A stretch of DNA of 64,000 bases from Candidatus Magasanikiibacteriota bacterium (GCA_023246755.1 JAHFHU010000003.1:3854-67853), one strand, 5' to 3'; shown: positions 16,825 to 42,417, counted from the first letter of the stretch. Notes: generated by a model not told the origin, from the sequence alone. Made by a program: numbers and translations.

Positions 16825-17997
16825 ATGGAAACAAACCGTATAAAATCACTTCAGATTGGCAGAAATATAGAGCAAAAAGAAGGTTTTAAGGCCTTTGTTC
16901 CTCATCATTTTCCCCCAAAGGAAGGTTTTGACTTTGATCCAAAAATTTTGAAAAAGAATAATGAAGCGACGCGCCTACTTGGTAAGCTCGACGGTATTAC
17001 CAAGCTTCTTCCGGACGCTGACTTTTTTTTGCTCATGTATTTAAGAAAAGATGCGACGTCCTCCAGTCAGATCGAAGGAACGATGGCAACGATGATTGAT
17101 GCAATTGAAGCCGAAGTGCAAGTCAGTGAGCATATTCCAGAAGATGTAGATGATATTTTGCATTACATTACGGCACTCAATTACGGCATCAAGCGAGTGA
17201 CGTCGGATAATTTTCCGATGGCACTCCGCTTTGTGCGGGAACTCCATCAAAAATTAATGCATACGGCGCGAGCTACGCATTTTTCTGATCCCGGAGAATT
17301 CAGAAAATCACAAAATTGGATCGGCGGCACGCGTCCGGGCAACGCGCGATTTGTTCCGCCGCCCGTTAGCGAGATGCATACATCTCTCAATGATCTTGAA
17401 TTATTCATGCATGCTGATGACACAACTCCAACGGTCATTAAGGCGGGGCTCATCCATGCTCAGTTTGAAACGATTCACCCATTTTTAGATGGAAACGGAA
17501 GAACAGGACGCATGTTGATCACGTTTTATTTGTGGAAAGAAGGTTTCTTGGAAAAACCTGTTTTATTTTTGTCGTCTTATTTTAAAAAACATCAAAAATT
17601 GTATTACGAAAAATTGTCTGGATATCACAGTGATGATGCCAAGATTGCTGAATGGGTTGAATTTTTTTTGGATGGTGTGATTGAAATTGCTAATGAAGCT
17701 ATTGCCATCGTTGATAAGATTAGTGTTTTGCGCGAAAAGGATATGGAAAAAGTTCAATCACTCGGCAAGCGAGCTTCGGAAAGTGCGATCATGGTTTTGC
17801 CGAAGCTGTACGGTCAGCCAATTGTTAATAATGCTTTAATCCAGAAATGGACAGGCTTCACTCGTGCGGGGGCGCAAACGGTGATTGATCGATTTATTGC
17901 GTTAGGAATCCTTTCTCCGAAAGATAAGGATAAAAAATATGGTCAATCATACATCTACAAAAAGTATGTTGCGATTTTTGTAGATACGGATCATTGA
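16825..17997 (+). CDS. fic: Fic family protein (AMPylator) with intramolecular inhibitory motif
   Basis: HPFLDGNGRTGRML core Fic motif. N-terminal SSQIEG matches the [ST]xxxE[GN] inhibitory helix of class II Fic. Confidence 0.85.
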   Translation: METNRIKSLQIGRNIEQKEGFKAFVPHHFPPKEGFDFDPKILKKNNEATRLLGKLDGITKLLPDADFFLLMYLRKDATSSSQIEGTMATMIDAIEAEVQVSEHIPEDVDDILHYITALNYGIKRVTSDNFPMALRFVRELHQKLMHTARATHFSDPGEFRKSQNWIGGTRPGNARFVPPPVSEMHTSLNDLELFMHADDTTPTVIKAGLIHAQFETIHPFLDGNGRTGRMLITFYLWKEGFLEKPVLFLSSYFKKHQKLYYEKLSGYHSDDAKIAEWVEFFLDGVIEIANEAIAIVDKISVLREKDMEKVQSLGKRASESAIMVLPKLYGQPIVNNALIQKWTGFTRAGAQTVIDRFIALGILSPKDKDKKYGQSYIYKKYVAIFVDTDH

Positions 17998-18149
17998 TCG
18001 AATTTACCGTAGCCCGAGGTTCGGGCCCGTACACGTCTCGCGCTATCTGGCGCGCGAAGGTAACCAGGGAAATCTGCTGGGAACCGTATGTCGTGGCGGA
18101 CTAACCAGAAGTGGTTGGGAGATTTCATTCACGGAGCGCGATCGGCTGA

Positions 18150-18656
18150 TTGCGCGCTCACGGTGGATTTAATCTCTCAGCCACTTTTATTTTGGAAACA
18201 TATGGAACAGAAAACAGAGGCGCACGTATTCACGCAGGCCGAGGAGCTCGTGCGTACGCGCCGTTTCATGTGCGCGATTTGCTCGTGGAGCATGGATATG
18301 GTCCCGAGGTGTGTCTTGCGGGGCTGCTGCACGACATTGTCGAGGATGGCGGTGTGTCGCTGGGTGAGCTGCGCGCGGCAGGATTTGGTGAGCGCGTCGT
18401 GGAGCTCGTTGATTTGTGCACGCATGACGCGTCGATTGAGGGGAATGATGCGCGATGGATTGTTATGATGGCGCGGCTGGTGCAGGCAGGCGACAGTGAC
18501 GCGTGGGCGATTAAGGTGGCGGATCTGGCGGATAATTTGCGGGATAGTGGGACGATGGAGGAGGGGCGGAGGAAGTGGATGTGGGAGGTTAAGAGGCCGA
18601 TGATGGGGAGGGTGGCGAAGGGGGCTAATGAGGAGCTGCTGAAGTTATTGGGTTGA
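18150..18656 (+). CDS. HD-domain phosphohydrolase (RelA/SpoT-like HD fold, small stand-alone)
   Basis: HAGRGARAYAPFHV...LAGLLHDIVED, i.e. H..HD..D metal ligands. True start may be a TTG/GTG near 18190. Locally GC-rich. Confidence 0.55.
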   Translation: MRAHGGFNLSATFILETYGTENRGARIHAGRGARAYAPFHVRDLLVEHGYGPEVCLAGLLHDIVEDGGVSLGELRAAGFGERVVELVDLCTHDASIEGNDARWIVMMARLVQAGDSDAWAIKVADLADNLRDSGTMEEGRRKWMWEVKRPMMGRVAKGANEELLKLLG

Positions 18657-18698
18657 TGTGACATTCTTTGTGAATTGTAGTAAGATCCCACTATATTT

Positions 18699-19532
18699 AT
18701 GAGTAGTCACGCCTTACAATTGCTTCTTCCGAGCGGTGACCCAAACGGGCTTAAGGTTATCAGTCTGAGCGGGTGGGCAGGGAAGTGTTTTATAGTTCCA
18801 CGTACTAATTTAAAACAGCTTAAGGATCGTATTGAAATTGATAAACCAGGGTTATATTTTTTATTTGGTCCTCGTGAGGAGGCTCCTCGGGTATATATTG
18901 GTGAGTCAGAGAGTTTTTATTCACGCATTATAAATCACGACATAAATAAAGATTTTTGGGAGACAGTGCTGATTTTTACCGGCGAGCTTAATCGTGCCGA
19001 TGTAAAATATCTTGAATTTAAAGCGACAACTTTTGCAAAAGAGTCTGCACGTTATTCTGTTGAAAATAAAGTACAGCCACAGGAAAATTCGCTTTCAGAA
19101 TTTGATAAAATTAAGGTTGAACATTTTTTTGAAAATGCGCGTCTTATTTTGCGCACATTTGGCTATGAAATTTTTGAGAAAGCTGCAGAGTCGTTTGCGG
19201 ATAGAGAGTTGTATTATTTAAAGGGTGAATTTTTTGATGCACGTGCGCGAATTTTGGAGGATGGTAGCTTGTTAGTTTTAAAAGGTTCCTTTGCACGCGC
19301 TCGTGAAACGTCATCATTTGATGGTTGGGCGAAGCTTGCACGAGAAGGGTTTTTGGTATCTGGTAAACTAGAGCCAGCTGTAAATCATTACGAATCTTAT
19401 GAATTTATGGAAGATGTAATTTTCAAAAGCCCTAGTGCTGCCGCAGCAACAATTGCGGGCCGCTCTATAAATGGTTGGACAGCATGGAAAAATGAGAAAG
19501 GTATAACGCTGGATGAAAATTTAAGAAAATAA
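18699..19532 (+). CDS. GIY-YIG nuclease family protein with DUF4357-like C-terminal domain
   Basis: GLYFLF..VYIGESESFYSRI GIY-YIG core. Sits immediately upstream of hsdM, as often seen for DUF4357 proteins. Confidence 0.6.
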   Translation: MSSHALQLLLPSGDPNGLKVISLSGWAGKCFIVPRTNLKQLKDRIEIDKPGLYFLFGPREEAPRVYIGESESFYSRIINHDINKDFWETVLIFTGELNRADVKYLEFKATTFAKESARYSVENKVQPQENSLSEFDKIKVEHFFENARLILRTFGYEIFEKAAESFADRELYYLKGEFFDARARILEDGSLLVLKGSFARARETSSFDGWAKLAREGFLVSGKLEPAVNHYESYEFMEDVIFKSPSAAAATIAGRSINGWTAWKNEKGITLDENLRK

Positions 19533-19551
19533 AAAGCAGTTTGATAATTAT

Positions 19552-21138
19552 ATGAGTAACAAGGATTCAAATTTGAATACGACCAAAGAGCAGGAGCGTT
19601 CAGAATTGCACCGGGCTATTTGGCAGATTGCAAATGATTTACGCGGGAGTGTTGATGGTTGGGATTTCAAGCAATATGTGTTAGGGGTGCTTTTTTATCG
19701 TTTTATCAGCGAAAATCTTACCAACTACATTAATTCCGATGAACGCCGCGCGGGTAAAAAGGATTTTGACTATGCGAACTTGTCAGACAAGGAGGCAGAA
19801 TTTGGGCGAGCTGATACCGTAAAAGAAAAAGGATTTTATATTTTACCAAGTGAACTTTTTGTAAATGTTCGCAAGAATGCCCGCAATGATGCCAACCTTA
19901 ATGAAACTCTCACAACTGTTTTTCGTAACATTGAGAATTCGGCAAAGGGTGCAAACAGCGAAGATGATATCAGAGGCTTGTTTGATGATCTTGATGTGAA
20001 TTCTAATAAATTGGGTGGCACGGTTGAAAAACGAAATCAGAAACTTGCAAAACTTTTTGAATCTATCGGTGACCTTCGTCTGGGTAATTACTCCGACAAC
20101 ACTATTGACGCCTTTGGTGACGCCTACGAATTTTTGATGACCATGTACGCCTCAAACGCCGGTAAGTCCGGGGGTGAGTTCTATACTCCCCAAGAAGTTA
20201 GCGAACTTTTGGCGGAAATCACTACGGTTGGGAAAACAGAGGTGAATAAGGTTTACGATCCAGCCTGCGGTTCTGGTTCCCTACTCCTCAAGTTCGCTAA
20301 AGTCCTTGGTAAAGAAAATGTTCGGCAAGGTTTCTATGGGCAAGAAATTAATCTTACAACCTACAATCTCTGCCGTATTAACATGTTCTTGCACGACATC
20401 AATTACAATAATTTTGATATTGCTCACGGTGATACGCTTATAGATCCGAAACACTGGGACGACGAGCCGTTTGACGCTATTGTCTCCAACCCACCGTATT
20501 CTATACATTGGGAAGGTGATGCAAACCCGCTTCTCATTAATGACCCCCGTTTTTCCCCGGCTGGAGTATTGGCACCAAAGAGTAAGGCCGATCTTGCGTT
20601 TACTATGCACATGCTTGCTTGGCTCTCGACAAGTGGCACTGCGGCGATCGTTGAGTTTCCCGGCGTTCTCTATCGTGGTGGCGCAGAGGGTAAAATAAGA
20701 AAGTATTTGGTAGACAACAATTATGTTGATGCGGTAATTCAACTTCCTCCTGACCTCTTTTTTGGCACAACTATCGCTACCTGTATCATCGTGCTCAAAA
20801 AGAGCAAAAAAGATAACAAAGCGCTTTTCATAGATGCTTCTGCCGAGTTTGTCCGTGGTGGTAACAAAAACAAATTGAGCGAAGTAAATCGGAAAAAGAT
20901 TTTAGACGCTTTTACTACCCGCCAAGACGCGAAGTATTTTGCCAAGCTCGTTGATAATAAAACCATTGCTGAGAACGACTACAATATTGCCGTTTCAAGT
21001 TATGTCGTGGCAGAAGATATGCGCGAGGTGGTAGACATAACCACGCTCAACACAAAAATCGCTAAGATTGTCACAAGGCAAAACGAACTCCGCACAGCGA
21101 TTGATGAGATTGTGGCAGATATTGAAGGTAATAAATAA
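19552..21138 (+). CDS. hsdM: Type I restriction-modification system methyltransferase subunit
   Basis: HsdM N-terminal domain, motif I (DPACGSGSLL) and motif IV NPPY (VSNPPYSIHW). Confidence 0.9.
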   Translation: MSNKDSNLNTTKEQERSELHRAIWQIANDLRGSVDGWDFKQYVLGVLFYRFISENLTNYINSDERRAGKKDFDYANLSDKEAEFGRADTVKEKGFYILPSELFVNVRKNARNDANLNETLTTVFRNIENSAKGANSEDDIRGLFDDLDVNSNKLGGTVEKRNQKLAKLFESIGDLRLGNYSDNTIDAFGDAYEFLMTMYASNAGKSGGEFYTPQEVSELLAEITTVGKTEVNKVYDPACGSGSLLLKFAKVLGKENVRQGFYGQEINLTTYNLCRINMFLHDINYNNFDIAHGDTLIDPKHWDDEPFDAIVSNPPYSIHWEGDANPLLINDPRFSPAGVLAPKSKADLAFTMHMLAWLSTSGTAAIVEFPGVLYRGGAEGKIRKYLVDNNYVDAVIQLPPDLFFGTTIATCIIVLKKSKKDNKALFIDASAEFVRGGNKNKLSEVNRKKILDAFTTRQDAKYFAKLVDNKTIAENDYNIAVSSYVVAEDMREVVDITTLNTKIAKIVTRQNELRTAIDEIVADIEGNK

Positions 21139-21143
21139 AATTT

Positions 21144-23348
21144 ATGAATAAGTTGAGGATCGAATTACAGCATTGTTATGGAATAAAAAAACTTAATCAT
21201 GAGTTTGATTTTTCAAATTGCAAAACCTTTGTAATTTATGCCCCAAATGGAGTAATGAAAACTTCGTTTGCAAAAACTCTTAAAAATATTGCAAAGGGCG
21301 AAAAACCATGTGATCAGACAGATGACACATTGGTTCCGGTTTATAATTTTTTTATTGATGACTCCAATAATCAAATCCAACGGGAAGATATATGTGTCAT
21401 AGAGCCCTATAATAAAAAAGCATTTGATTCTGAAGATAAAGTCCTTACCCTTTTAGCAGACGATGAAACAAGAAAGGAATATTTGACAATATTTAACGAA
21501 ATTGAATCTCTTAAAAAATCTTCTCTTTCTGGATTAAAAAAAATATCAGGTAGTAGCAACTACGAATCTGAAATTATAGAAGCATTTTCTAATCTTGATA
21601 AGAAAAATATTTTTGAAATTTTCGAGGCTATTTTAAACGACATTGAAACCTCAAAAGATTCATTTGAATTTAAATATAATGATGTTTTTGACAAAGCCAA
21701 TAAGGTTAAAAAATTTCTTGCAGACAATTTTACATTGTTGAAAGAATACATTGAAAAATACAATGATCTGATTAGCAAATCTACCTTTTTTGCAAAAAAT
21801 GCTGACCATGTTTTTGGCACAACAGAAGCAAAAATTCTTGGCAAGTCCCTTGAGGGAGATGAATATTTTATTGCTGGGCATAAGCTAGTATTAAAATCTC
21901 ACGGAGACATATCTGCTAAAAATAAATTAGCAGATATAATAGATGAGGAGATTGCAAAAGTTTTTAATGATAAGGGCCTGAAAGATGTCTTTGAGAAAAT
22001 TGATAATTTACTCGACGCTAATAAAGAATTGCAATCCTTTAAAAAGGTTATAGAAAGAGACAATTCGATTTTATTGAGATTAAATGATTACGATGTATTT
22101 AGAAAAGAGGTATGGTTTAGTTTCTTAAAACAAATTGAAACTGGTATAAAATCATTAGTTGAATTATATAATCAAAAAAAGTTTGATTTAGAAAAAATTA
22201 TACAAAAAGCAAAGGACAGTCAATCGCAATGGGAAAGCACTATTAAGGAATTCGAGAACAGATTTGTTAATAACCCATTTACTCTCGAAATTCAAAATAA
22301 GGCGGATGCGATATTAAATGAAAAAACACCAGCAATTGATTTTAAATTTCAAGGAAAAGATATTGAAAGGAATAATTTAATAGAAAATGTATTGAGCCAA
22401 GGAGAAAGACGGGCTTTATATATTTTAAACGTTATTTTTGAGATTAAATCTCGGCAATTACAAAATAAAAAAACGTTGTTTATCATTGATGACATAGCAG
22501 ACTCTTTTGATTATAAAAATAAATATGCCATTGTTGAGTATTTAAATGATTTGTCCAAAGAAGATAATTTTTGCTCAATAATTTTAACTCACAATTTTGA
22601 TTTTTTTAGAACTCTTCAATCAAGGATTTTACAAGATAAAAAATGGGAATATTCGTTTGTTGCCGAGAGACTAAAAGATGAGATTAAGTTAATTAATGCT
22701 GGCAGTAGAAATGTTACCGACCCATTTACCAACTGGAAAGCGGGAGTTAATAATAACGAAAAACATTTAATTGCATGCGTTCCTTTCGTACGTAATTTAA
22801 TTGAATTTAAAGATGGACAAAGCAATGCCCATTATAAGCTTTTGACGCATGCTCTTCATAGAAAGCTTTTGGACGGAATTATTAAGGAAACCGCAGATAT
22901 TAGAATTGCTGATTTACGAGACCCATTTTCATCTGTTTTATCGGGTATTACATTTACATTCACAGACACAAATAAAAAAATTGTAGATATTATCGAGGAA
23001 CAGATCACGGCAATAAAGGGAGCTGAAAATTATGATTCAATTGTTTTGGAAGATAAAATTATTCTTGCCATCGGAATCAGATTGAAAGCGGAAGAATATA
23101 TGTGGTCTCAGGTCACAAACCAAAATCCAATACACGGCTCGCAAACAGGGGTATTATTTGGGAGATATAAACAGGATTTTAAAGACAACGATACTCATAA
23201 AGAGACACTGAAAATTCTTGAGAGCGTCATCATAATGACCCCTGAAAACATACATTTGAATTCTTTTATGTACGAGCCGATTTTAGATATGGGCATAGAT
23301 GAATTAAAGAGTTTGCATGATAAAGTTTGCAATTTAACAAGTACATAA
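21144..23348 (+). CDS. ABC/SMC-type ATPase embedded in the hsd operon (PrrC/RloC-like anticodon-nuclease candidate)
   Basis: Degenerate N-terminal Walker A (IYAPNGVMKTSF), ~370 aa K/E/L-rich predicted coiled-coil insert, ABC signature LSQGERRALYIL, Walker B LFIIDDIADSFD, THN H-loop. C-terminal ~280 aa has no recognised family but carries an R-x3-E...H arrangement (VRNLIEF..NAHYKLLTHALH). Lies between hsdM and hsdS. Confidence 0.55.
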   Translation: MNKLRIELQHCYGIKKLNHEFDFSNCKTFVIYAPNGVMKTSFAKTLKNIAKGEKPCDQTDDTLVPVYNFFIDDSNNQIQREDICVIEPYNKKAFDSEDKVLTLLADDETRKEYLTIFNEIESLKKSSLSGLKKISGSSNYESEIIEAFSNLDKKNIFEIFEAILNDIETSKDSFEFKYNDVFDKANKVKKFLADNFTLLKEYIEKYNDLISKSTFFAKNADHVFGTTEAKILGKSLEGDEYFIAGHKLVLKSHGDISAKNKLADIIDEEIAKVFNDKGLKDVFEKIDNLLDANKELQSFKKVIERDNSILLRLNDYDVFRKEVWFSFLKQIETGIKSLVELYNQKKFDLEKIIQKAKDSQSQWESTIKEFENRFVNNPFTLEIQNKADAILNEKTPAIDFKFQGKDIERNNLIENVLSQGERRALYILNVIFEIKSRQLQNKKTLFIIDDIADSFDYKNKYAIVEYLNDLSKEDNFCSIILTHNFDFFRTLQSRILQDKKWEYSFVAERLKDEIKLINAGSRNVTDPFTNWKAGVNNNEKHLIACVPFVRNLIEFKDGQSNAHYKLLTHALHRKLLDGIIKETADIRIADLRDPFSSVLSGITFTFTDTNKKIVDIIEEQITAIKGAENYDSIVLEDKIILAIGIRLKAEEYMWSQVTNQNPIHGSQTGVLFGRYKQDFKDNDTHKETLKILESVIIMTPENIHLNSFMYEPILDMGIDELKSLHDKVCNLTST

Positions 23349-23349
23349 C

Positions 23350-24534
23350 ATGACAAACAATCAATCAAAAATTGAAAAATTGATCAGCAAACTCTGCCCG
23401 AATGGAGTGGAGTTTAAGGAGTTAGGTGAACTTTTGGATTACGAACAGCCGGGCAATTTCATCGTTAGATCAACTGAATATAATGATAATCTAGCAACGC
23501 CAGTATTGACGGCTGGGAAAAGTTTTATTCTTGGTTATACAGATGAAGTAGACGGTATATATAAAGCGAGCCAAGAATATCCGGTAATTATTTTTGACGA
23601 TTTTACGACTTCGTTCCACTGGGTAGATTTTCAATTTAAAGTTAAATCTTCCGCGATGAAAATGTTACGGAATAAAAAGGATGTTGATGTAAGCTTTAAA
23701 TTTATCTATTTTGCGATGAGATGTATACATTATGTTCCTTCAGATCATGCACGTCATTGGATTTCTCAATATTCAAAATTTAAAATCCCTCTTCCACCCC
23801 TTGAAATCCAAGAAGAGATTGTCAAAATTCTTAATAGTTTTACAGAGCTGGAGGCAGAGCTGGAGGCAGAGCTGGAGGCAAGAGAATCGCAATATAAGCA
23901 TTATCGAAAAAAGCTTTTAAGTATTAATGGTGATAGCGTGCAGTGGAAAACATTGGGAGAAGTTGCGGAGTACCGTCGAGGTTCTTTCCCGCAACCCTAT
24001 GGTGAAACTAAATGGTATGGAGGTGAAGGCGCTATGCCATTTGTTCAAGTGGCTGACGTTGGAGAAAATATGCGACTTGTTGAAAATACTAAACAGAAAC
24101 TTTCTAAGTTAGCCCAGTCTAAGAGTGTATTTGTACCTTCCGGAACAGTTATTGTAACCTTACAAGGCAGTATTGGACGAGTTGCCGTTACTCAATATGA
24201 TAGTTATGTTGATCGTACACTTGCAATTTTTGAAAGTTTTAAAAACAAAATTAATAAAAAATATTTTGCATATCAATTAGAAAGTAAATTTAGTGTCGAA
24301 AAAGAAAATGCGCGTGGAAGTACGATAAAAACAATTACAAAAGAAGAATTCACAAAATTTAAAATTCCAGTTCCATCACTTGAAATGCAGGATTATATAG
24401 TTACCAAACTAGATGCATTTAATTTACTTTTGAATGACATTTCAATTGGTTTGCCGGCAGAACTCTCGGCTCGCAGGCAACAATACGAATATTACCAAGG
24501 GAAGCTTTTAACTTTCAAAGAATATGCCAAATAA
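23350..24534 (+). CDS. hsdS: Type I restriction-modification system specificity subunit
   Basis: Two target-recognition domains separated by a conserved central helix containing (ELEA)x3. C-terminal conserved region (QQYEYYQGKLL). Overlaps hsdR start. Confidence 0.85.
   Translation: MTNNQSKIEKLISKLCPNGVEFKELGELLDYEQPGNFIVRSTEYNDNLATPVLTAGKSFILGYTDEVDGIYKASQEYPVIIFDDFTTSFHWVDFQFKVKSSAMKMLRNKKDVDVSFKFIYFAMRCIHYVPSDHARHWISQYSKFKIPLPPLEIQEEIVKILNSFTELEAELEAELEARESQYKHYRKKLLSINGDSVQWKTLGEVAEYRRGSFPQPYGETKWYGGEGAMPFVQVADVGENMRLVENTKQKLSKLAQSKSVFVPSGTVIVTLQGSIGRVAVTQYDSYVDRTLAIFESFKNKINKKYFAYQLESKFSVEKENARGSTIKTITKEEFTKFKIPVPSLEMQDYIVTKLDAFNLLLNDISIGLPAELSARRQQYEYYQGKLLTFKEYAK
23845..23880 (+). repeat. 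3 x 12-bp perfect tandem repeat (GAGCTGGAGGCA) encoding (ELEA)3 in the HsdS central conserved region
   Basis: Read directly from sequence. Confidence 0.8.
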
Positions 24535-27500
24535 TAAATACAATCTGGTTGCGGAGAATCCACAGAGCACTGTCGTGGGTGAGTATGTAGCGGAAGGTGT
24601 GCGCGTTGCTCATTATCAAAGTGAGGCAGATTTGGAGCGAGCTTTTATCAAACAACTTGAAACACAAGCGTACGAATATCTACCCATCACCTCTGAAGCT
24701 GATTTAATACTCAACCTGCGTAAGCAACTGGGGAAACTCAATGATTTTACTTTTACCGATAGCGAATGGGAACATTTTTTTGTCAGTGAGCTTGCCAACC
24801 CAAATCAAAGCATTGCCGAAAAGACCTCCACCATTCAAGAAGACCACATCAAAAACCTGACGCGCGAAGATGGCACGACCAAGAATGTGTACCTCATAAA
24901 AAAGGATAACATTCACGACAATAGTTTGCAGGTGATCAATCAATACGCGACCGAAGACGGTCAGCGTGCCAATCGCTATGATGTGACGGTGCTTGTGAAC
25001 GGCTTGCCTTTGGTGCATATTGAGCTCAAACGACGTGGAGTGGCTATTGCCGAGGCGTTCAATCAGATCAATCGTTACAGCCGAGAAAGTTTTTGGGCTG
25101 CGTCGGGACTTTTTGAATATGTGCAGTTATTTATTATTTCCAACGGTACACATACTAAGTACTATAGTAACACTGTCCGTTCAGAGCACATTAAGGAAGC
25201 CGGTGAAGGTGCGGTGAAAAAAGGCAAACGTTCGAGTAATAGTTTTGAATTTACCAGCTGGTGGGCAGATGCTACCAATCGACCGATTACGGATCTGATG
25301 GATTTTGGGAAAACATTTTTTGCCAAGCACGCACTCCTCAATATCTTGACCAAGTATTGTGTATTCACAACCGATAGACAGCTTTTAGTAATGCGACCAT
25401 ATCAGATTGTCGCAACCGAGAGAATACTTAGTCGTATTGAAGTAAGTACTAATTACAAGAAACTCGGCACGGTCGAGGCTGGCGGTTACATTTGGCATAC
25501 GACCGGATCAGGAAAAACTTTGACCAGTTTCAAAACCGCACAACTTGTAAGTAAATTATCTTACGTAGATAAGGTTATTTTTGTGGTTGACCGCAAGGAT
25601 TTGGATTATCAAACAATGCGAGAATACGATAAGTTTGAAAAAGGTGCAGCAAATAGTAATACAAGTACAGCAGTTTTGACGCGTCAGCTAGGAGATTCGA
25701 ATTCACACATCATTATTACCACTATTCAGAAGCTCGATCGTTTTATCGGACGCAATGCCGGACACGCTATTTTTGATGGTCATGTAGTGCTTATCTTTGA
25801 TGAATGTCATCGTTCTCAGTTTGGGGATATGCACGCTGCTATTACCAAAACATTCAAGAATTACAATTTGTTTGGTTTTACTGGTACTCCGATTTTTGCC
25901 AAGAATGCGTCTGCTGGTGGACGACCAGAATTGAAAACGACCGAGCAGGCTTTTGGTGAAAAGTTGCATACCTACACGATTGTTAATGCTATCGCTGATA
26001 AAAATGTTTTGCCGTTTAAAGTGGATTATGTCTCTACGGTTAGAGAAGCAGAGAATATTGAAGATGCACAGGTAAGAGATATTGATCGTGAAGCAGTGCT
26101 GGCTTCGCCGGAACGCCTGGCAAATATCGTTGGTTACATTCGCGAGCATTTTGACCAAAAGACCAAGCGGAATAGTTTTTATAAATTGAACGATCGCCGG
26201 TTAGCCGGGTTCAATTCTATTTTTGCCGTTTCGTCTATTGATGTGGCAAAAAAGTATTACGCTGAATTCAAAAAACAACTTGATGGTGTGCCAAGCGATA
26301 AGCAGCTCAAAGTGGCAACGATATATAGCTTTGGAGTTAACGATGAGGATGCGGATGGAATGATCGACGAAAATTCAGAGGATACGAACGGACTTGATGT
26401 GAGCTCAAGAGATTTTCTTGATAGCGCAATTACTGATTACAATGCGATGTTTGGAACATCCTACGATACCTCGTCTGAGAAGTTTCAGAATTATTACAAA
26501 GACGTGAGCTTAAAAATGAAAAATCGTGAGATTGATGTGCTGATCGTGGTCAATATGTTTTTGACCGGCTTTGATGCTACAACGCTGAACACGCTTTGGG
26601 TGGACAAAAACTTGAGACTACATGGACTCTTGCAGGCATTTTCCCGCACCAATCGAATATTAAATAGTGTAAAGGCTTTTGGTAACATTGTCTGTTTCCG
26701 TAATTTAGAGAAGGCAACAAACGAATCTATTGCTCTTTTTGGAAATAAAGAAGCGGGTGGCGTGGTACTTCTTAAGTCATACGATGAGTATTACAACGGC
26801 TTCAAAGATGGCGATAAGGAAGTGCGTGGATACGCAAGTTTGGTGGCAGAGCTCACGGAAAAATTTCCGATTGGTGAGCAAATTTTGGGCGAGCAAAACC
26901 AAAAAGATTTTATCAAGCTCTATGGTGGAATTTTGCGAGTGCGCAACATTCTGACTACCTTCGACGAATTTATTGGCAACGAGATTTTAAGTGAGCGCGA
27001 TGTGCAGGATTATCACAGTATGTACATCGATCTTTACAATGAATTCCGTAAAGGTGCTGAGATTGAACAGGAAAATATTAATGATGATCTTGTTTTTGAG
27101 ATGGAGCTTATCAAGCAAGTAGAAATAAATATTGATTTTGTATTAGCTCTTATTAAGAGATACCACGAAGATCATAATCAGGATCGTGAGATTTTGGCTG
27201 ATATCAATAAAGCGATTGATTCAAGTGTAGAGCTACGAAATAAAAAGGATCTTATCAATCAATTCATTACATCACTTGATATCCATTCAGTCGTTGAGGA
27301 GGATTGGCAGAAATTCGTGGACAAAAAAAAGATTGAGGAGCTGGAAAAAATTATTGATAATGAAGGTTTGGATCACGATGCAACATTTGCGTTTGTACGA
27401 AATTCTTTTCGTGATGGAAGTGTGGCAACGACTGGTACAGCAATAACCAAAGTTTTACCGCCAGTAACTCGTTTTTCTCCGACCGGCGAACGAACTCAAA

Positions 27501-27580
27501 AGCGTGAAAGTGTAATTAGTAAGCTCACAAGTTTCTTTGAAAGGTTCTTCGATATTTCTGGTGGAAAGTTTTCAGATTAA
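24524..27580 (+). CDS. hsdR: Type I restriction enzyme R subunit (SF2 helicase + nuclease)
   Basis: Walker A HTTGSGKTLTSF, DEAH-box FDECHRSQ, 1018 aa, directly follows hsdS. Confidence 0.9.
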   Translation: MPNNKYNLVAENPQSTVVGEYVAEGVRVAHYQSEADLERAFIKQLETQAYEYLPITSEADLILNLRKQLGKLNDFTFTDSEWEHFFVSELANPNQSIAEKTSTIQEDHIKNLTREDGTTKNVYLIKKDNIHDNSLQVINQYATEDGQRANRYDVTVLVNGLPLVHIELKRRGVAIAEAFNQINRYSRESFWAASGLFEYVQLFIISNGTHTKYYSNTVRSEHIKEAGEGAVKKGKRSSNSFEFTSWWADATNRPITDLMDFGKTFFAKHALLNILTKYCVFTTDRQLLVMRPYQIVATERILSRIEVSTNYKKLGTVEAGGYIWHTTGSGKTLTSFKTAQLVSKLSYVDKVIFVVDRKDLDYQTMREYDKFEKGAANSNTSTAVLTRQLGDSNSHIIITTIQKLDRFIGRNAGHAIFDGHVVLIFDECHRSQFGDMHAAITKTFKNYNLFGFTGTPIFAKNASAGGRPELKTTEQAFGEKLHTYTIVNAIADKNVLPFKVDYVSTVREAENIEDAQVRDIDREAVLASPERLANIVGYIREHFDQKTKRNSFYKLNDRRLAGFNSIFAVSSIDVAKKYYAEFKKQLDGVPSDKQLKVATIYSFGVNDEDADGMIDENSEDTNGLDVSSRDFLDSAITDYNAMFGTSYDTSSEKFQNYYKDVSLKMKNREIDVLIVVNMFLTGFDATTLNTLWVDKNLRLHGLLQAFSRTNRILNSVKAFGNIVCFRNLEKATNESIALFGNKEAGGVVLLKSYDEYYNGFKDGDKEVRGYASLVAELTEKFPIGEQILGEQNQKDFIKLYGGILRVRNILTTFDEFIGNEILSERDVQDYHSMYIDLYNEFRKGAEIEQENINDDLVFEMELIKQVEINIDFVLALIKRYHEDHNQDREILADINKAIDSSVELRNKKDLINQFITSLDIHSVVEEDWQKFVDKKKIEELEKIIDNEGLDHDATFAFVRNSFRDGSVATTGTAITKVLPPVTRFSPTGERTQKRESVISKLTSFFERFFDISGGKFSD

Positions 27581-27587
27581 ATCTGTA

Positions 27588-29051
27588 ATGAAACACATGT
27601 CTGCTTCCTTCACCCCCTCCCTCTTCTACAAATTCTCCACCTGCCCGCACTGGATCTGGCACGATTTTTTCGGTAACCCCGCAAATAAAATCGAAGTCCC
27701 AGCACTCGCGCAAAAGTTGATCGATCAGGGTGTATTGCATGAAGAAGAATATATCAAAGGATTGAATTTTGTTTCAGTGACATTAAAAAATTCAACCGAT
27801 GCGTTCGCGGCAACGCTCGCGCTTATGCAAAGCGGCACGGATCTGATTTATCAGGGTGAAATTCAGTACGAAGAAAACAACATTTTGTACCATGGCCGCC
27901 CTGACCTGCTCGAAAAGCGACCAGGCACGTCGAAATTCGGCGCCTACTATTACGCGCCCATTGATATTAAATCGTCGAGCAAGCTCGATAAGAAACATAA
28001 GCTACAACTGACGCTCTACGCAACTATTCTTGAACAGATGCAGGGCGTGTTTCCCGAGGAGACGGCGATCATCAATCGCGCGCACGAACGCATTCCATTC
28101 ACCATCGCGCCAAAAGATCGCGCGGAAACGCAGAAACAAATGAGCAGCATTCTTGCAGTGATGTCAGGCGAAAAGCCGCCGCTCAAACTCGCAGGCAGTT
28201 GCAAACAAAGTCCGTGGTACCCTGAGTGCGTGCACGATGCAGAGGAAGCGCAGGATATCGCGCTGCTGTATAAGCTCGACAATCGCGCGTGTGCGGCGCT
28301 GCGTGCAGAGGGGATTGTATCGATTCATGATGCGGCGCAGATGGACATCGTACGTCTGCCAAAAATTCCATTCGCGAGTCAGAAAATTCTTGCGCGCGTG
28401 AAAGTGCAGGCGCAGTCGCTTCTCGATGGAGAATTGAAATGGCTTGCGCGCCCATCGCTGCCACACGCGCCGCTCCAACTCTATTTTGATATTGAAGGCG
28501 ATCCACTGCTCGGCGTCGATTACTTGTTCGGGTTGTGGGTGTGCGGCGACGCAGCGCACGCCTACGCACACACGGGTCACGTTCGGTTCGACGCGGAGTC
28601 GAGCGATTATTTTATTTATTTTGTTGCAGAGACGCCGGAGGATGAAGGGGCGATGTGGGCCGCGTTTTTGCAGTGGATCGAGGCGCTGCCGACGGGGAAG
28701 TATGACACGTTTCACTACGCAGATTACGAACGTTCACACACCGGCGCGCTTGCTGCGAAATACGGCACGTCCGCGGCGTTCGAGGAATTTGTGACGACGT
28801 ATGTTGACCTGATGAAGGTGATGAGCGCGTCTGTTGTGTTGCCATTATATTTTTATTCGATCAAAGATATCGCAAAATCTCGTTTCTTGAATTTCAAATG
28901 GCGTCACGAAAAAGCAGGTGGCGCGCAAAGTATTTTTTGGTACGAAGAATGGCTCGAGAAACGCGACTCGGGGATTTTAAAAGATATTGTAGACTATAAC
29001 GAGGACGATGTGCGGGCGACGAAGGCGTTGTATGGGTGGCTAATAACTTAA
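27588..29051 (+). CDS. RecB-family nuclease, TM0106-type (N-terminal PD-(D/E)xK/Cas4-like domain plus C-terminal DnaQ-like fold)
   Basis: N-terminal FSTCPHWIW, GRPDLL, IDIKSS motifs; C-terminal LYFDIEGDP (DxE exonuclease-like). Start set at the MKHMS ATG just after the hsdR stop. Confidence 0.5.
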   Translation: MKHMSASFTPSLFYKFSTCPHWIWHDFFGNPANKIEVPALAQKLIDQGVLHEEEYIKGLNFVSVTLKNSTDAFAATLALMQSGTDLIYQGEIQYEENNILYHGRPDLLEKRPGTSKFGAYYYAPIDIKSSSKLDKKHKLQLTLYATILEQMQGVFPEETAIINRAHERIPFTIAPKDRAETQKQMSSILAVMSGEKPPLKLAGSCKQSPWYPECVHDAEEAQDIALLYKLDNRACAALRAEGIVSIHDAAQMDIVRLPKIPFASQKILARVKVQAQSLLDGELKWLARPSLPHAPLQLYFDIEGDPLLGVDYLFGLWVCGDAAHAYAHTGHVRFDAESSDYFIYFVAETPEDEGAMWAAFLQWIEALPTGKYDTFHYADYERSHTGALAAKYGTSAAFEEFVTTYVDLMKVMSASVVLPLYFYSIKDIAKSRFLNFKWRHEKAGGAQSIFWYEEWLEKRDSGILKDIVDYNEDDVRATKALYGWLIT

Positions 29052-29074
29052 GTTATATAAATGACGGGAGGTCT

Positions 29075-29100
29075 AATTATCCACAATTCAGTGGATAATT
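29075..29100. promoter_or_regulatory. perfect inverted pair of DnaA-box-like 9-mers (AATTATCCAC-aattca-GTGGATAATT) abutting a TTGACA-n17-TATAGT promoter
   Basis: TTATCCACA equals the consensus DnaA box. Promoter at ~29110..29139 precedes the NYN gene. Confidence 0.35.
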
Positions 29101-29202
29101 CATGCCTTGACACCAAAACTTTCTCGATCTATAGTTACTTCATCGTCGCCTGCTCCGCCGTCACTGGCCTGGGCAGGTTTTCCATATTATATTCTAAACA
29201 CT

Positions 29203-29838
29203 ATGAGGAGGGCATGTGTTTTTGTTGATGGGAGCAATTTCTATCATCGCGTTTTAAAAAATTTAGGTATTCAGGAGTCAAATTTTGATTTCAATGCATT
29301 TGCGCAATTTTTGGTTTCAAGCTATGCACCTTCTGAAAATCAGTTTCGACATTATTCTGGCGTCATCGCAGGAGTTTCATTTCATGAGATGTCAGACTCC
29401 GCAAAAGATCATCAGAAAACTATTCGGTCACTCATGAGTCTCGATTGTTGGTCAGTCATTACGGCAAAATTGAGAACTCGCAAGGAACATATAGTCATCG
29501 ATGATCGGGTGGATAATCATGTTCGATTGAAAGAGTTAGGTGTGGCCAAAATTTGTTTTTCAAGAGAGCGTGAAAAAACAATTGATATGAAAATCGGTCT
29601 TGATATGATGTTGGGCGCACTCGATAACCTCTACGATGTTGCAATTTTAATAAGTTCAGATTCAGATTTGGTACCCGTTTGTGAATTGGTAAAAAGCAGA
29701 TTTTGGAAACGTGTAGAATACGTTGGATTTCATATTATTGCACCAGACACCACTGTGCCGACAAAAGCTTTGATGTATGCAACTGATAGCCAAAGAATTT
29801 TTGGTCCTGATGATATTAAACGATTTGTCAGGCGATAA
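29203..29838 (+). CDS. NYN-domain (LabA-like PIN-fold) protein
   Basis: Start at MRRACVFVDGSNFYHRV (NYN DGxN motif). The upstream 32 codons of the track ORF overlap a promoter-like sequence. Confidence 0.55.
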   Translation: MRRACVFVDGSNFYHRVLKNLGIQESNFDFNAFAQFLVSSYAPSENQFRHYSGVIAGVSFHEMSDSAKDHQKTIRSLMSLDCWSVITAKLRTRKEHIVIDDRVDNHVRLKELGVAKICFSREREKTIDMKIGLDMMLGALDNLYDVAILISSDSDLVPVCELVKSRFWKRVEYVGFHIIAPDTTVPTKALMYATDSQRIFGPDDIKRFVRR

Positions 29839-30261: not shown

Positions 30262-30344
30262 GTAGCTGTTGTGTGTACGCCAATGGATATTAAGCTATTT
30301 GTTGTATAATTGGGTTTAGAACAATAATACAACAACTTACACCT

Positions 30345-30797
30345 ATGCCCTGCATTTTTTGCTCCATCGTTTCCGGCGAAGCGCCGTCACACAAAATTTG
30401 GGAGGATGAAAATCATCTCGCGTTTTTGTCGATTTTTCCGAACACGCGCGGCACGACCGTGGTGATTCCGAAACAGCATGCGGCGAGTTATGTTTTTGCC
30501 GTCGCGCCAAAAATCATGCACGACCTGATGGATGCGGCGGCGAGAGTCGCGGCGCTGATCGACACGCGCCTCCCGAATGTCGGTCGCACCGGCCTCATCT
30601 TCGAAGGTTTCGGGGTCAACCATTTACACGCAAAATTATTTCCGCTCCACGACACCGCGGCACCCGATTGGCAACCGGTTAATTCGTCTGTGACCAAAAT
30701 GTTTGAAACCTACGAAGGCTATCTTTCGTCGCACGATGGCCCGCGCGCGGATGACAACGAGCTCGCGGAAATCGCGCGGGTGTTGCGTGGCACTTGA
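30345..30797 (+). CDS. HIT-family (histidine triad) hydrolase
   Basis: N-terminal CIFCSI..HKIWEDE and a histidine triad variant VNHLHAKLFP. Confidence 0.8.
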   Translation: MPCIFCSIVSGEAPSHKIWEDENHLAFLSIFPNTRGTTVVIPKQHAASYVFAVAPKIMHDLMDAAARVAALIDTRLPNVGRTGLIFEGFGVNHLHAKLFPLHDTAAPDWQPVNSSVTKMFETYEGYLSSHDGPRADDNELAEIARVLRGT

Positions 30798-30881
30798 CAA
30801 AAATAACAACACGTTATATATTTTATTCACGCATCGCCGCTAGGCGTCCTCTCCTCCTCACAAGGGAGGAGAGTTTATTTT
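30793..30881 (+). promoter_or_regulatory. promoter (TTGACA-n17-TATATT) plus structured leader (HP1 CGCC-gcta-GGCG; HP2 CTCTCCTCC-n6-GGAGGAGAG followed by a U-tract) preceding the PemK-like gene
   Basis: Read from sequence. Architecture and hairpins are conserved with compensatory changes at 31583..31680. Confidence 0.4.
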
Positions 30882-30891
30882 TAAGGGGGGT

Positions 30892-31290
30892 ATGTATCAA
30901 AAAGATTTTGACCAATGGAGTAAAGTCAAAAAACAAATAAACGTTAAAAAAGTTCGAATCACTATTCGGTCAGGCGATGTTCGGTGGATTATTTTTGGCG
31001 TAAATGTTGCAAGTGAAATCGACGGTAAGGGGGATTTATTTTTACGACCGGCTTTGATACTTCATGTGATTGGTGCGGATCTCGCGCTTGTCGTTCCTCT
31101 AACTTCGAAGCAAAAAAATATTCCCGGATATATACCATTTGCATTGAAGAAAAAATTTTGTTCACTATGTCTCCACCAAATAAAAGTAGTTTCACAAAAT
31201 CGCATGTTGTATCGACTTGAGCATGTTGCAGATAGCAGAGTGTATGAAGTGCAAAGACACGTCATGGATTTTTACGGGTTTCATAGATAA
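30892..31290 (+). CDS. PemK/MazF-fold endoribonuclease toxin-like protein (orphan, copy 1)
   Basis: SGDVRWIIFGVNVASEIDGKGDLFLRPALIL...LVVPLTSKQK...HQIKVVSQNRMLYRLEHV matches Kid/PemK/MazF motifs (GD[IV]W, RPxLIL, PLTS). Confidence 0.65.
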   Translation: MYQKDFDQWSKVKKQINVKKVRITIRSGDVRWIIFGVNVASEIDGKGDLFLRPALILHVIGADLALVVPLTSKQKNIPGYIPFALKKKFCSLCLHQIKVVSQNRMLYRLEHVADSRVYEVQRHVMDFYGFHR

Positions 31291-31316
31291 AGTTAAAGTG
31301 GCGTATACTATGCCTC

Positions 31317-31574
31317 ATGTACCACCTCTACCTTCTCCGCTGCGCCGATGACACGCTGTATGCCGGCATCACGACCGACCTTGTGCGGCGCGTCGAAGAA
31401 CATAGCACATCGGCGCGCGGTGCAAAGTACACGCACGCGCGGCGGCCGGTCGAACTCGTGTACAGCAAAAAATTTCGCACGCGCTCGACTGCATCACGCG
31501 CGGAATATAAACTCAAACAACTTTCGCGCGACGAAAAATTAGCGCTCATCAGTTTTCCACAAAAAAGTGGATAA
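31317..31574 (+). CDS. GIY-YIG nuclease superfamily protein (UPF0213/YhbQ-like)
   Basis: YHLYLLRCADDTLYAGITTDLVRRVEEH..GAKYT..RRPVELVY is a classic GIY-YIG small protein. Confidence 0.75.
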   Translation: MYHLYLLRCADDTLYAGITTDLVRRVEEHSTSARGAKYTHARRPVELVYSKKFRTRSTASRAEYKLKQLSRDEKLALISFPQKSG

Positions 31575-31582
31575 CCACGGCT

Positions 31583-31680
31583 TGACAAAATTTTTGTTCC
31601 GTGGAATAGTGTAAATACATTTCGCCGTTAGGCGCCCGAGCCTCCTCCATCACGGGGGAGGTGCATACTTTTAAGGAGGG
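31583..31680 (+). promoter_or_regulatory. promoter (TTGACA-n17-AATAGT) plus structured leader (HP1 CGCC-gtta-GGCG; HP2 CCTCCTCC-n5-GGGGGAGG followed by a U-tract) preceding PemK-like copy 2
   Basis: Paralogous to 30793..30881. Stems are conserved by covariation rather than by sequence identity. Confidence 0.4.
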
Positions 31681-31682
31681 GT

Positions 31683-32558
31683 ATGTATCAAAAAAATTTT
31701 GAGCAGTGGAATTTAATTAAGCAGCAGATAAATTATGAAAACCGTTCAGTACGAATTCGTGCGGGCGATGTTTGTTGGATTTTTGTTGGTGTAAATGTTG
31801 GGAGTGAAATTGATGGTAAGGGCGAATCTTTTCTTCGCCCAGCTTTGATTTTGAATGTTATGGGTGATGATTTGGTTCTAATCATTCCTCTCACGTCAAA
31901 ACAAAAACAATTACCGCGCTACATTCCACTCGAAATTCAAGATCGTACGAGCTTTTTATGTCTTCATCAATTAAAGGTAGTTTCTCAAAATCGTATTTTA
32001 CGTCGTATCGAGCATATTTCTGACTCGCGTCTCGCCTCCGTTCGTCATAACGTGCTATTATTCCACAACTTCACACCGACGCCTAAACCAAAACCTATGG
32101 CTCACATTCACGAACTCATCGATTTCACCGTGTCTTGCATGATTCTTCATCCAACCGAACCAAAAATTTTGTTAATTAATCACAAAATACTCAACACATG
32201 GCTGCCAATTGGTGGGCACATCGAACTCAATGAAGATCCGGACGAAGCGATCGCACGCGAAGTCGCTGAAGAGTGTGGTCTTCCGATCGAAATGATTTCG
32301 CGACGTCACTCCGGCGAATATCCGGAAACTAAAATGTTGCTCATCCCTGAAACTGTTGACATCCACACGATCAACACCGCGCACCGCCACATCAATTTCG
32401 GCTACCACGCACGTGCGCTCAGCGCAAACCCAAAACTTGCGCCCGAGGAGCATCACGATATTCAATGGTTCGGTGCAGACGAACTTGCCGACCCGAATTT
32501 TAACATCAAGCCCGCGGTCCGCGTCTACGCACTTGAATTTTTGCAAAAAAATGCGTAA
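31683..32558 (+). CDS. PemK/MazF-fold toxin-like domain fused to a C-terminal NUDIX hydrolase domain
   Basis: Residues 1-125 are paralogous to 30892..31290 (about 60 % identity). After a PTPKPKP linker comes the Nudix box GGHIELNEDPDEAIAREVAEECGL (GX5EX7REUXEEXGU). Confidence 0.6.
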   Translation: MYQKNFEQWNLIKQQINYENRSVRIRAGDVCWIFVGVNVGSEIDGKGESFLRPALILNVMGDDLVLIIPLTSKQKQLPRYIPLEIQDRTSFLCLHQLKVVSQNRILRRIEHISDSRLASVRHNVLLFHNFTPTPKPKPMAHIHELIDFTVSCMILHPTEPKILLINHKILNTWLPIGGHIELNEDPDEAIAREVAEECGLPIEMISRRHSGEYPETKMLLIPETVDIHTINTAHRHINFGYHARALSANPKLAPEEHHDIQWFGADELADPNFNIKPAVRVYALEFLQKNA

Positions 32559-35527: not shown

Positions 35528-35661
35528 CGAATGGATGGGGAGGCGTGGCTCCCATATCGTTGAGGATTTTTATGCACCGGTTTTCCACCATTGACAAAAT
35601 TTTTGATTCGTGGAACCCAGTAGTTTGTACGTCGCGCTGCGGCGGATAAATTTTAAGATCT

Positions 35662-36087
35662 ATGATGACGCATAGGAGGGTGCGATTGTTTGGGTATGTG
35701 GTTATTGAACGTGGAGTTGGAGAATTTGGGCCGATATATTCTGGCATTCGCGGGCAGGACGCAGTGAATTTTTTGTTGCAGGCAAAATCAGGTGAGGTAT
35801 TGGCTGCTTTTATGCATTCGGTTCTTGGGCCGATTGATTTGGTTTGGGGAGTAGAAACGGTTGGTGAGCGAAAGGGTTTTGGTCTTGCAAAAATTATCCA
35901 AAAACATCCCGAAGCGATTCATAGTCTGACAGAAGCGATAAAAAATAGCGAAATTGTTGAGGAACTTCCGGATAGACGTGTTCTTTTGTCACGTGATCAT
36001 GATCAGCAGTCCGTTATTGATTTGCAGTTTAACAATAAAAGTAAAAAGTGGTTGCTTACGTCGTATTTCCTTATAAAAATAACTTGA
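35662..36087 (+). CDS. hypothetical protein
   Basis: ORF only. Confidence 0.35.
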   Translation: MMTHRRVRLFGYVVIERGVGEFGPIYSGIRGQDAVNFLLQAKSGEVLAAFMHSVLGPIDLVWGVETVGERKGFGLAKIIQKHPEAIHSLTEAIKNSEIVEELPDRRVLLSRDHDQQSVIDLQFNNKSKKWLLTSYFLIKIT

Positions 36088-39741: not shown

Positions 39742-39788
39742 AGATAAATCAAAAAGAGTATACTGTATTTACCGCATTTCTCACAACT

Positions 39789-40808: not shown

Positions 40809-40809
40809 T

Positions 40810-41349: not shown

Positions 41350-41355
41350 TTTTTT

Positions 41356-42408: not shown

Positions 42409-42417
42409 AATATTTTT

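Follow-up and report, generated by a model that had tools for sequence, protein, structure and literature searches.

Is the AT-rich type I restriction-modification (RM) locus at positions 18699-29838 of the DNA analysed here a defence island acquired as one piece, and do the nuclease genes on its two sides belong to that defence? The whole stretch is 64,000 nt long (the window; all coordinates count from its first letter), and an initial annotation had proposed a single, horizontally acquired island, with the flanking nucleases as possible further defence components. At the heart of the locus we find a predicted family IC operon whose horizontal acquisition is well supported by sequence comparison, and around it a mosaic of defence and toxin genes. 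That the operon is correctly identified, intact and of horizontal origin we hold with high confidence. On balance we favour a reading of the whole locus in which this intact type IC operon was acquired horizontally and, with its embedded and flanking accessory genes, forms a layered accessory defence; the flanking nuclease genes are probably extra anti-phage modules. The mechanisms that we propose for the accessory genes are each tentative, falling short of an even chance at best.

The type I RM cassette and its origin

The locus holds seven named genes, with a palindrome and a promoter-like site ahead of the last of them:

18699-19532, + strand: PDC-S14 (PADLOC 8e-81; Pfam DUF4357 5e-18, C-terminal, RAMA-like)
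19552-21138, + strand: hsdM (TIGR00497 763 bits; N6_Mtase 2e-114; HsdM_N)
21144-23348, + strand: PDC-S46, an ABC/SMC-type ATPase (PADLOC 1e-228, full length)
23350-24534, + strand: hsdS (Methylase_S in two stretches; PADLOC Specificity_I 7e-102)
24524-27580, + strand: hsdR (HSDR_N, SWI2_SNF2, T1R_D3-like, EcoR124_C; REase_I 1156 bits; 11-nt overlap with hsdS)
27597-29051 (alternative start 27585), + strand: TM0106-family nuclease (TIGR03491 300 bits against a cutoff of 97.45)
29075-29100, no strand: palindrome with DnaA-box consensus (perfect, 10+10)
29107-29135, + strand: sigma-70-like promoter for the NYN gene (TTGACA-17-TATAGT, 11/12 positions)
29203-29838, + strand: NYN-domain (PIN-like) predicted RNase (Pfam NYN 6.5e-14, 53 bits against a cutoff of 24; PADLOC HEC-09 1e-12; ~39% GC)

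This is the gene order of the initial annotation (GIY-YIG/DUF4357, hsdM, ATPase, hsdS, hsdR, TM0106, NYN), and it is borne out by Pfam, PADLOC and NCBIfam; the PADLOC search gave matches to PDC-S14, PDC-S46, Specificity_I and, further upstream, SoFic. All seven genes are on the + strand, and the gaps from PDC-S14 through TM0106 measure 19, 5, 1, -11 and 16 nt. Such short gaps suggest one transcription unit, and the six genes at 18699-29051 are probably co-transcribed as a single operon. NYN begins 151 nt after the end of the TM0106 gene.

The three RM subunits are complete, with their catalytic motifs, and the system is predicted to be intact. HsdM carries an NPPY motif at residue 313, and HsdS has two target-recognition domains plus conserved repeats (internal repeats at 23774-23822 and 24353-24401). 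HsdR contains the D..ELK, GKT and DECH motifs and aligns almost end to end with the HsdR of EcoR124I (PDB 2w00, E = 6.5e-253). On the strength of this near end-to-end match to EcoR124I/II we assign the system, from its sequence, to the EcoR124I-like family IC, and the sequence features of that family are found here: an HsdM that is an N6-adenine methyltransferase, an HsdS with two target-recognition domains, and an HsdR that joins a nuclease, a superfamily 2 (SF2) motor and EcoR124_C. An M2S1 complex would methylate host DNA, and an R2M2S1 complex would translocate and cut unmethylated phage DNA.

Composition sets the RM genes apart. The GC content is 48.2% for the whole window, 39.5% for 18699-29838 and 37.7% for 18699-27580, which is the lowest-GC 8.9-kb stretch of the window (the minimum starts at 18701). 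At third codon positions (GC3), the five cassette genes range from 0.26 to 0.43, while the median of the remaining 54 open reading frames (ORFs) is 0.535 (Mann-Whitney p = 0.0016), and the three lowest GC3 values of the window all belong to cassette genes. Within the block, the ATPase gene (30% GC) and hsdS (36%) lie below hsdM (43%) and hsdR (41%), the ATPase gene being the lowest-GC ORF in the window. The initial annotation had described a contiguous segment of about 38% GC reaching to 29838. That description holds as far as 27580, and composition across the window is indeed not homogeneous, with its minimum coinciding with the cassette; beyond 27580, the TM0106 gene has 50.9% GC and a GC3 of 0.58, similar to neighbouring housekeeping genes, so the AT-rich segment is not contiguous to the end of the span. 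GC falls back to 38.9% in the NYN gene.

On its own this is weak evidence for acquisition, because the window is patchy overall (per-kb GC 0.29-0.61, with other low-GC patches, for example at 5-7 kb). The same patchiness is what speaks for regarding the GC dip as mere heterogeneity of the window and the RM operon as an old resident, a view that we consider highly improbable in light of the comparison with relatives. The closest ATPase homologues with fetched contexts, at ~85% identity, lie on contigs of 32-35% GC. Three related contigs (L024, L027 and L028; GC 0.33-0.35), one of them a Candidatus Magasanikbacteria metagenome-assembled genome (MAG), show the same hsdM-ATPase-hsdS-hsdR order, and the core cassette (19570-27562) is 72-80% identical to theirs in DNA over 19570-23433 and 24354-27562. 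HsdM, the ATPase and HsdR are 81-88% identical as proteins. In hsdS the conserved regions are ~80% identical and the target-recognition domains 35-42%, as expected for specificity swapping. The shared homology sets in exactly where hsdM starts and stops exactly where hsdR ends; outside it the window and these contigs have nothing in common, and the flanking genes are unrelated. The slot upstream of hsdM is taken there by a NucS/DUF8426-type nuclease or a divergent LexA, and the slot downstream of hsdR by unrelated genes or DUF2130. The core is thereby shown to be a horizontally exchanged cassette, present in low-GC relatives with other flanks.

A relative of the window's own genome points the same way. 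On contig L070 (SmpB 81% identical, GC 0.55), synteny is kept for 39292-48695 of the window, on the side of the transfer-messenger RNA (tmRNA) and SmpB. Beyond the tmRNA only a MazF-NUDIX fusion gene is common to both (65%), and beside its ortholog L070 carries, at 17100-20450, a different type I hsdR (987 aa, 0.37-0.39 GC, without EcoR124_C); TM0106, NYN and HIT genes are absent from this homologous neighbourhood. The site on the MazF-NUDIX side is a recurrent, variable hotspot for RM and defence genes. Nor does an RM gene adjoin pyrF-pyrE, which lie to the left of the locus, in any of 21 loci that hold a distant homologue of pyrF, so the gene order is not conserved as core; in metagenomes, the pyrF relatives found are at most 45% identical and share nothing with the window beyond pyrF-pyrE. 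Cassette homology with low-GC genomes, unrelated flanks and the replacement hsdR of L070 thus bear out the horizontal acquisition that the initial annotation had deduced from gene order and composition, and synteny, too, agrees with it.

The acquired unit is another matter. What was proposed as a single island is an acquired cassette lying in a mosaic: the region at 16.8-32.6 kb is a defence- and toxin-rich mosaic variable region (SoFic, NYN, MazF modules), not a single integrative island. No integrase or recombinase domain was found in 16-38 kb, no flanking direct repeats or att repeats around the locus, and no close relative without the cassette; the boundaries are therefore drawn from homology only. 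The locus thus lacks the integrase and flanking repeats of a classical integrative island, and the tmRNA lies 10.7 kb away. We considered a tmRNA-derived att site at the left edge, where a 22-nt inverted match (20/22) pairs 18034-18055, between the SoFic and HD_4 genes, with 38469-38490, an internal part of the tmRNA; it does not extend, Rfam gave no hit, and we judged it a chance match. Strain variants lacking the island were also sought. The contigs that exact-protein look-ups gave are 99.95-100% identical to the window in DNA; the one exception is L034, a ~93%-identical variant that covers 30301-31681 only. Contig breaks near 18030 and 18563 in the matching contigs are uninformative, and an apparently truncated NYN and a 55-aa gene in strain variants are merely different gene calls.

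The ATPase gene between hsdM and hsdS

The embedded gene encodes a protein of 734 aa that matches PDC-S46 with residues 1-731 on profile positions 1-718 of 719. It is an SMC/Rad50-like ABC ATPase: an ABC head is split by a helical insert of ~270 residues, LSQGE (signature), FIIDD (Walker B) and THN (H-loop) are conserved motifs, and among known structures it best matches the heads of SMC and Rad50, PtuA and retron ATPases. The family is large, with more than 7,500 of 8,000 scored candidates significant. PDC families are guilt-by-embedding candidates (Payne et al., 2024, preprint, 10.1101/2024.01.29.577857), and PDC-S46 and PDC-S14 are candidate defence families of this kind. Sequence searches of PDB with either protein gave nothing useful, and the searchable literature on PDC-S46 yielded nothing relevant.

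Residues 498-734 form a separate all-alpha domain in the predicted structure (pLDDT 87.4, pTM 0.85). Its matches are mostly HEPN proteins (AF0298, the toxins of MNT-HEPN pairs, SO_3166 and sacsin HEPN, and further Cas13b, RnlA, LsoA, Csm6 and Csx1), and the modelled domain weakly resembles HEPN. A Foldseek search of PDB with the domain found nothing significant, and the Rx4-6H motif was not found in it. A set of polar residues is invariant (R550, H572, K574, D590, K638, R646, E650, H704, N706, S707, Y710, E711 and D715), which suggests catalysis. The domain forms ~1,200 clusters at 50% identity with a fixed architecture, being nearly always C-terminal in proteins of 710-770 aa; shorter matches look like fragments.

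PDC-S46 is RM-linked in 6/6 contexts: in four, the hsdM and hsdS genes of EcoR124_C-type systems enclose it, and in two it follows DpnII-like type II systems. Among the four, one has a RhuM gene inside the operon (L074) and one an extra PrrC-like gene. We also observed a DUF2130 gene with PDC-S46 in two different RM contexts, after hsdR in L027 (14247-15530) and immediately before the ATPase in L073 (5722-7008). Two precedents bear on these arrangements. The anticodon nuclease PrrC is embedded in the type Ic system EcoprrI, which makes its host system a member of family IC too (PMC3710099), and ABC-HEPN proteins are described from RM operons that also hold Fic/DOC or RhuM toxins (Anantharaman et al., 2013, PMC3710099). 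The window's SoFic gene, RM operon and ABC-HEPN-like ATPase reproduce this neighbourhood of RM, ABC-HEPN and DOC.

By analogy with PrrC, our preferred mechanism, put forward tentatively, makes PDC-S46 a second-line module that monitors the RM complex. It would be silenced by the complex, or would sense its state; it would be triggered once phage anti-restriction factors disable the complex; and the target of its C-terminal domain would then most likely be RNA. Several observations tell against this proposal. In at least 90% of the family the Walker A motif is deviant (APNGVMKT, where M stands for the second G). The window protein has no match to Pfam AAA_13, the PrrC/RloC family, and such a match occurs in 1/44 of its own family. 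An hhalign comparison of PDC-S46 with the PrrC-like AAA_13 protein of L024 was not significant (probability 2%), and since L024 carries PDC-S46 as well as this PrrC-like gene, the two are not simple equivalents.

That coexistence with a bona fide PrrC-like gene also favours a different account, in which PDC-S46 is a DNA-directed SMC/Rad50-like ATPase that aids RM and not an RNase-type abortive-infection module. It would sense DNA ends or foreign DNA by the logic of Septu, Lamassu, Wadjet or retron ATPases, and its C-terminal domain would serve for non-catalytic interaction or nucleic-acid binding. The structural matches of the ATPase head fit this account, as does the company of DpnII-like type II systems; so does the missing Rx4-6H motif, HEPN domains without it being thought to be non-catalytic binders (PMC3710099). 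We nevertheless consider it unlikely: no partner nuclease consistently adjoins PDC-S46 in the six contexts, the invariant polar residues of the C-terminal domain suggest catalysis, and this domain is found almost only fused to the PDC-S46 ATPase. A PrrC-like module that watches over the RM complex is the account that we carry forward.

Nuclease genes at the flanks

The proposal that the flanking nucleases are defence components fared unevenly. As a candidate PDC-S14 is well supported, the evidence for the TM0106-family gene is suggestive, and that for the NYN gene is weak.

In PDC-S14 a GIY-YIG motif (GLYFLF...VYIGES...SRIINH) is readable; the window protein has no Pfam GIY-YIG match, and several homologues carry PF01541 (precomputed) or the NCBI name GIY-YIG nuclease. 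The gene, a member of a PADLOC family, stands directly upstream of hsdM in 3/3 contexts, which span different type I families. The homologues that are 85% and 61% identical belong to operons with a T1RH-like_C HsdR, a different type I family, and these hold other embedded cargo, Abi_C in one and Bro-N with a Shedu-like SduA_C in the other. Because the same position recurs in other type I families, the link is to hsdM and type I RM in general and not to this cassette. DUF4357 is also fused to GmrSD and McrB-type proteins, which is compatible with a modification-sensing, DNA-binding role of PDC-S14. With its GIY-YIG and DUF4357 DNA-binding domains the protein would add a separate nuclease activity coupled to hsdM, and this activity could be type IV-like, directed against modified DNA.

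The TM0106-family gene starts 16 nt after hsdR, or 4 nt if its start is 27585. The protein covers positions 6-462 of 462 in the TIGR03491 profile, contains RNase_H_2 (6e-27, DEDD-like) and Cas_Cas4 (5.6e-8, PD-(D/E)xK) domains, and keeps its D..DIK and DIE motifs intact. Against the Cas4 equivalog TIGR00372 it scores 48.5 bits, below the cutoff of 65; there are no cas genes among its annotated neighbours and no CRISPR array nearby. PADLOC matched no system to it and gave weak similarity to a Cas4 model alone, a PDB sequence search returned nothing useful, and nothing relevant was found in the searchable literature on TM0106/TIGR03491. Its best homologues (59% identity) come from Uhrbacteria MAGs.

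We ran the same tblastn probe set on the fetched flanks of 14 TM0106 loci with usable flanks and of 21 pyrF control loci. Homologues of RM methyltransferases or hsdR lie near TM0106 in 6/14 loci, against 0/21 controls (Fisher p = 0.0019). By record title, the six come from Uhrbacteria, Altimarinota, Parachlamydiales, Verrucomicrobiae and two Gammaproteobacteria. Among 130 ORFs neighbouring TM0106, N6_Mtase, HsdM_N, Methylase_S and ResIII share the top rank of the Pfam families with a LOG/SLOG family, at 4 members each. In a Verrucomicrobiae MAG (L012) an hsdR belonging to a different type I family stands directly upstream of the TM0106 gene, as in the window, its end 11 nt away, and in an Altimarinota MAG hsdM and hsdR lie upstream of it.

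Long forms of TM0106 are present in 76 plasmid records. There the TM0106 module is N-terminal in proteins of ~1,110-1,136 aa with an MkoA-like superfamily 1 (SF1) helicase. In the four plasmids that we examined (L064-L067, from Piscirickettsia, Rhizobium etli, Pseudomonas luteola and Roseomonas), the neighbours include SIR2, dGTPase, WYL, ThiF/multiubiquitin, Fic and toxin-antitoxin (VapBC) genes; PADLOC assigned these long forms no system beyond helicase- and nuclease-domain similarity. TM0106 has no match in the phage collection, which leaves a phage-recombination origin of TM0106 without support.

TM0106, with a Cas4-like endo/exonuclease and a DEDD-like exonuclease domain, would process or degrade the DNA ends that restriction makes. 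In a joint reading that we regard as possible yet doubtful, it is an unrecognised RM accessory (for end processing, in a RecBCD/AddAB-like role in small genomes, or as a back-up nuclease), the helicase-fused plasmid forms are stand-alone defence genes, and PDC-S46 is a PrrC-like RM guard with a non-canonical HEPN-like domain. The association of TM0106 with RM rests on 14 loci, a small sample. One may suppose instead that only the AT-rich block (18699/19552-27580) was acquired, and that TM0106 and NYN are resident genes of DNA repair and RNA metabolism beside the insertion site. The TM0106 gene is host-like in GC (0.51) and housekeeping-like in GC3; it lies outside the cassette common to L024 and L027; it matches no PADLOC system beyond its weak Cas4 similarity; and in four loci (L003, L004, L006 and L007: two Uhrbacteria MAGs, one Patescibacteria-group MAG and one labelled Gammaproteobacteria) it adjoins LOG-family genes without RM. 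NYN, for its part, has its own promoter, and HEC-09, its relative, gave no phage protection in a published screen. We hold residence to be doubtful all the same. The 4-16 nt gap between hsdR and TM0106 suggests co-transcription, RM genes recur near TM0106 in loci from several phyla and not in the controls, and hsdR of a different type I family lies directly upstream of it in L012. Moreover, TM0106, NYN and HIT are missing from the homologous neighbourhood in L070, and the plasmid long forms have defence-like surroundings in the four examined.

The NYN domain itself is bona fide, the PADLOC match to HEC-09 is modest, and of the accessory genes NYN has the least supported role in defence. Its promoter, already noted in the initial annotation, is a fact of the sequence and the joint best promoter-like site in a scan of 16-32 kb. 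The long NYN ORF opens with a TTG at 29107, so this TTG is part of the -35 hexamer and not a start; the start is likely the in-frame ATG at 29203, which another assembly's gene call also uses (211 aa). The DnaA-box-like site of the initial annotation can likewise be read in the sequence, as TTATCCACA within the palindrome just upstream of the promoter (AATTATCCAC-aattca-GTGGATAATT). As RNA this palindrome would fold into a hairpin of -16.9 kcal/mol (z = -3.4) without a U-tract, and it is putatively either an operator or a transcript-end hairpin.

Surroundings and comparison with known systems

To the left of the locus lie infC, an EamA transporter, a methyltransferase, pyrE and pyrF, followed by a SoFic-like gene and an HD_4 gene. 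NYN is followed on the right by a 131-aa ORF, a HIT protein and three small toxin- or nuclease-type genes, and these by an ABC transporter, a PBECR1 nuclease-like gene, a radical-SAM gene, RusA, the tmRNA (38324-38727) and SmpB. The nearer of these features are:

16825-17997, + strand: SoFic-like Fic/DOC-family gene (Pfam Fic_N 2.9e-20, Fic 8.1e-20; PADLOC SoFic 1e-106, full length; 41% GC)
18150-18656, + strand: small HD_4-domain protein (Pfam HD_4 1.9e-6, 28.1 bits against a cutoff of 27.2; 58% GC)
30892-31290, + strand: MazF (PemK_toxin)
31317-31574, + strand: small GIY-YIG protein (Pfam GIY-YIG 1.6e-16)
31683-32558, + strand: MazF-NUDIX fusion (PemK_toxin and NUDIX)

The SoFic-like gene scores 129 bits against the NCBIfam SoFic equivalog, whose cutoff is 550. 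For the HD_4 protein the PADLOC search found no match; the related cassette of L024 likewise has two HD_4 genes on its upstream side. MazF (30878-31137) and the N-terminal half of MazF-NUDIX (31669-31928) are paralogues with 72-74% DNA identity, with the small GIY-YIG gene between them, and no antitoxin gene was identified. A GC-rich block at 43000-51100 (59-61% GC) holds several large ORFs without a Pfam match, one of which (46968-48695) has Dictyostelium-type (Dicty_CTDC) repeats; compared with L070, the ORFs of this block diverge much faster than their neighbours (30-48% against 64-86% identity). The SmpB of the window is closest, at 70-71% identity, to proteins named Candidatus Magasanikbacteria; this and the Uhrbacteria origin of the best TM0106 homologues place the host, as judged from sequence, among the Patescibacteria (Magasanikbacteria-like, ~50% GC).

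The palindrome ahead of NYN has a second, imperfect copy, TTTTCCACAAAAAAGTGGATAA, at 31553-31574 (site 31552-31576), between the small GIY-YIG and MazF-NUDIX genes. Both palindromes (TCCAC-N6-GTGGA, with DnaA-box-like half sites) lie in the same geometry, ~19 nt upstream of a near-consensus -35 box; the second precedes the promoter of the MazF-NUDIX gene at 31582-31610 (TTGACA at 31582). The pattern TCCAC-N3-9-GTGGA occurs at these two sites only, against 0.16 expected. In the 93%-identical strain L034 both arms of the second palindrome are degraded, so that selection on it is not evident. A 25-nt promoter-region sequence, TTGACAAAATTTTTG.TTCGTGGAA, occurs at 31582-31606 and 35581-35615 with 92% identity, ahead of the MazF-NUDIX gene and of the PBECR1 nuclease-like gene (35662-36087), which hints at possible co-regulation of toxin-type genes.

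Each of the accessory genes PDC-S14, PDC-S46 and TM0106 recurs beside RM systems elsewhere, and the locus is a clean example, from the Patescibacteria (candidate phyla radiation, CPR), of layered defence around a type I RM operon. Within this group, RM cassettes travel between lineages of high and low GC and take their embedded cargo along. Three leads follow: a structural hypothesis for the PDC-S46 family, as an ABC ATPase with a HEPN-like domain that lacks the canonical motif; the fixed position of PDC-S14 upstream of hsdM; and a statistical link to RM for TM0106, a family that matches no PADLOC system. The TM0106-RM association and the ABC-plus-HEPN-like reading of PDC-S46 are the most original by-products, and the general picture of defence islands is unchanged by the three leads.

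Set beside known systems, the locus follows an established pattern and represents no new type of system. With EcoR124I and type IC it shares an HsdR that is nearly full-length, including EcoR124_C, along with the NPPY motif of HsdM and the two target-recognition domains and conserved repeats of HsdS; it differs in its single operon of the form M-(ATPase)-S-R, where a further gene parts M from S, in the nuclease genes on both sides and in its Patescibacteria host. TM0106 has the PD-(D/E)xK core (D..DIK) and Cas4-like cysteines in common with Cas4 and AddB-type nucleases, and its TIGR03491 score and additional RNase_H_2 (DEDD-like) domain in common with TIGR03491 proteins. From Cas4 it departs in its equivalog score below cutoff, in lacking a CRISPR-cas context, in its tight linkage to hsdR and in its helicase fusions on plasmids. 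The PADLOC candidates PDC-S46 and PDC-S14 are matched here over their full length and also in the placement by which they were defined, inside or next to the genes of a type I RM operon, to which we add the ABC head and HEPN-like reading of the former and the constant upstream-of-hsdM position of the latter. Like PrrC in EcoprrI and RloC-like proteins, PDC-S46, inside a type IC hsd operon, would pair an ABC/Rad50-like ATPase with a helical domain at its C-terminus that is HEPN-like, and the RM/DOC/RhuM neighbourhoods of RloC-like proteins are echoed by SoFic beside the operon here and by RhuM inside the homologous operon of L074. Unlike PrrC and RloC, PDC-S46 lacks an AAA_13 match and Rx4-6H, is a 734-aa protein with a ~270-residue insert, and sits between hsdM and hsdS; unlike PrrC, it also accompanies type II DpnII-like systems and co-occurs, in L024, with a PrrC-like gene.

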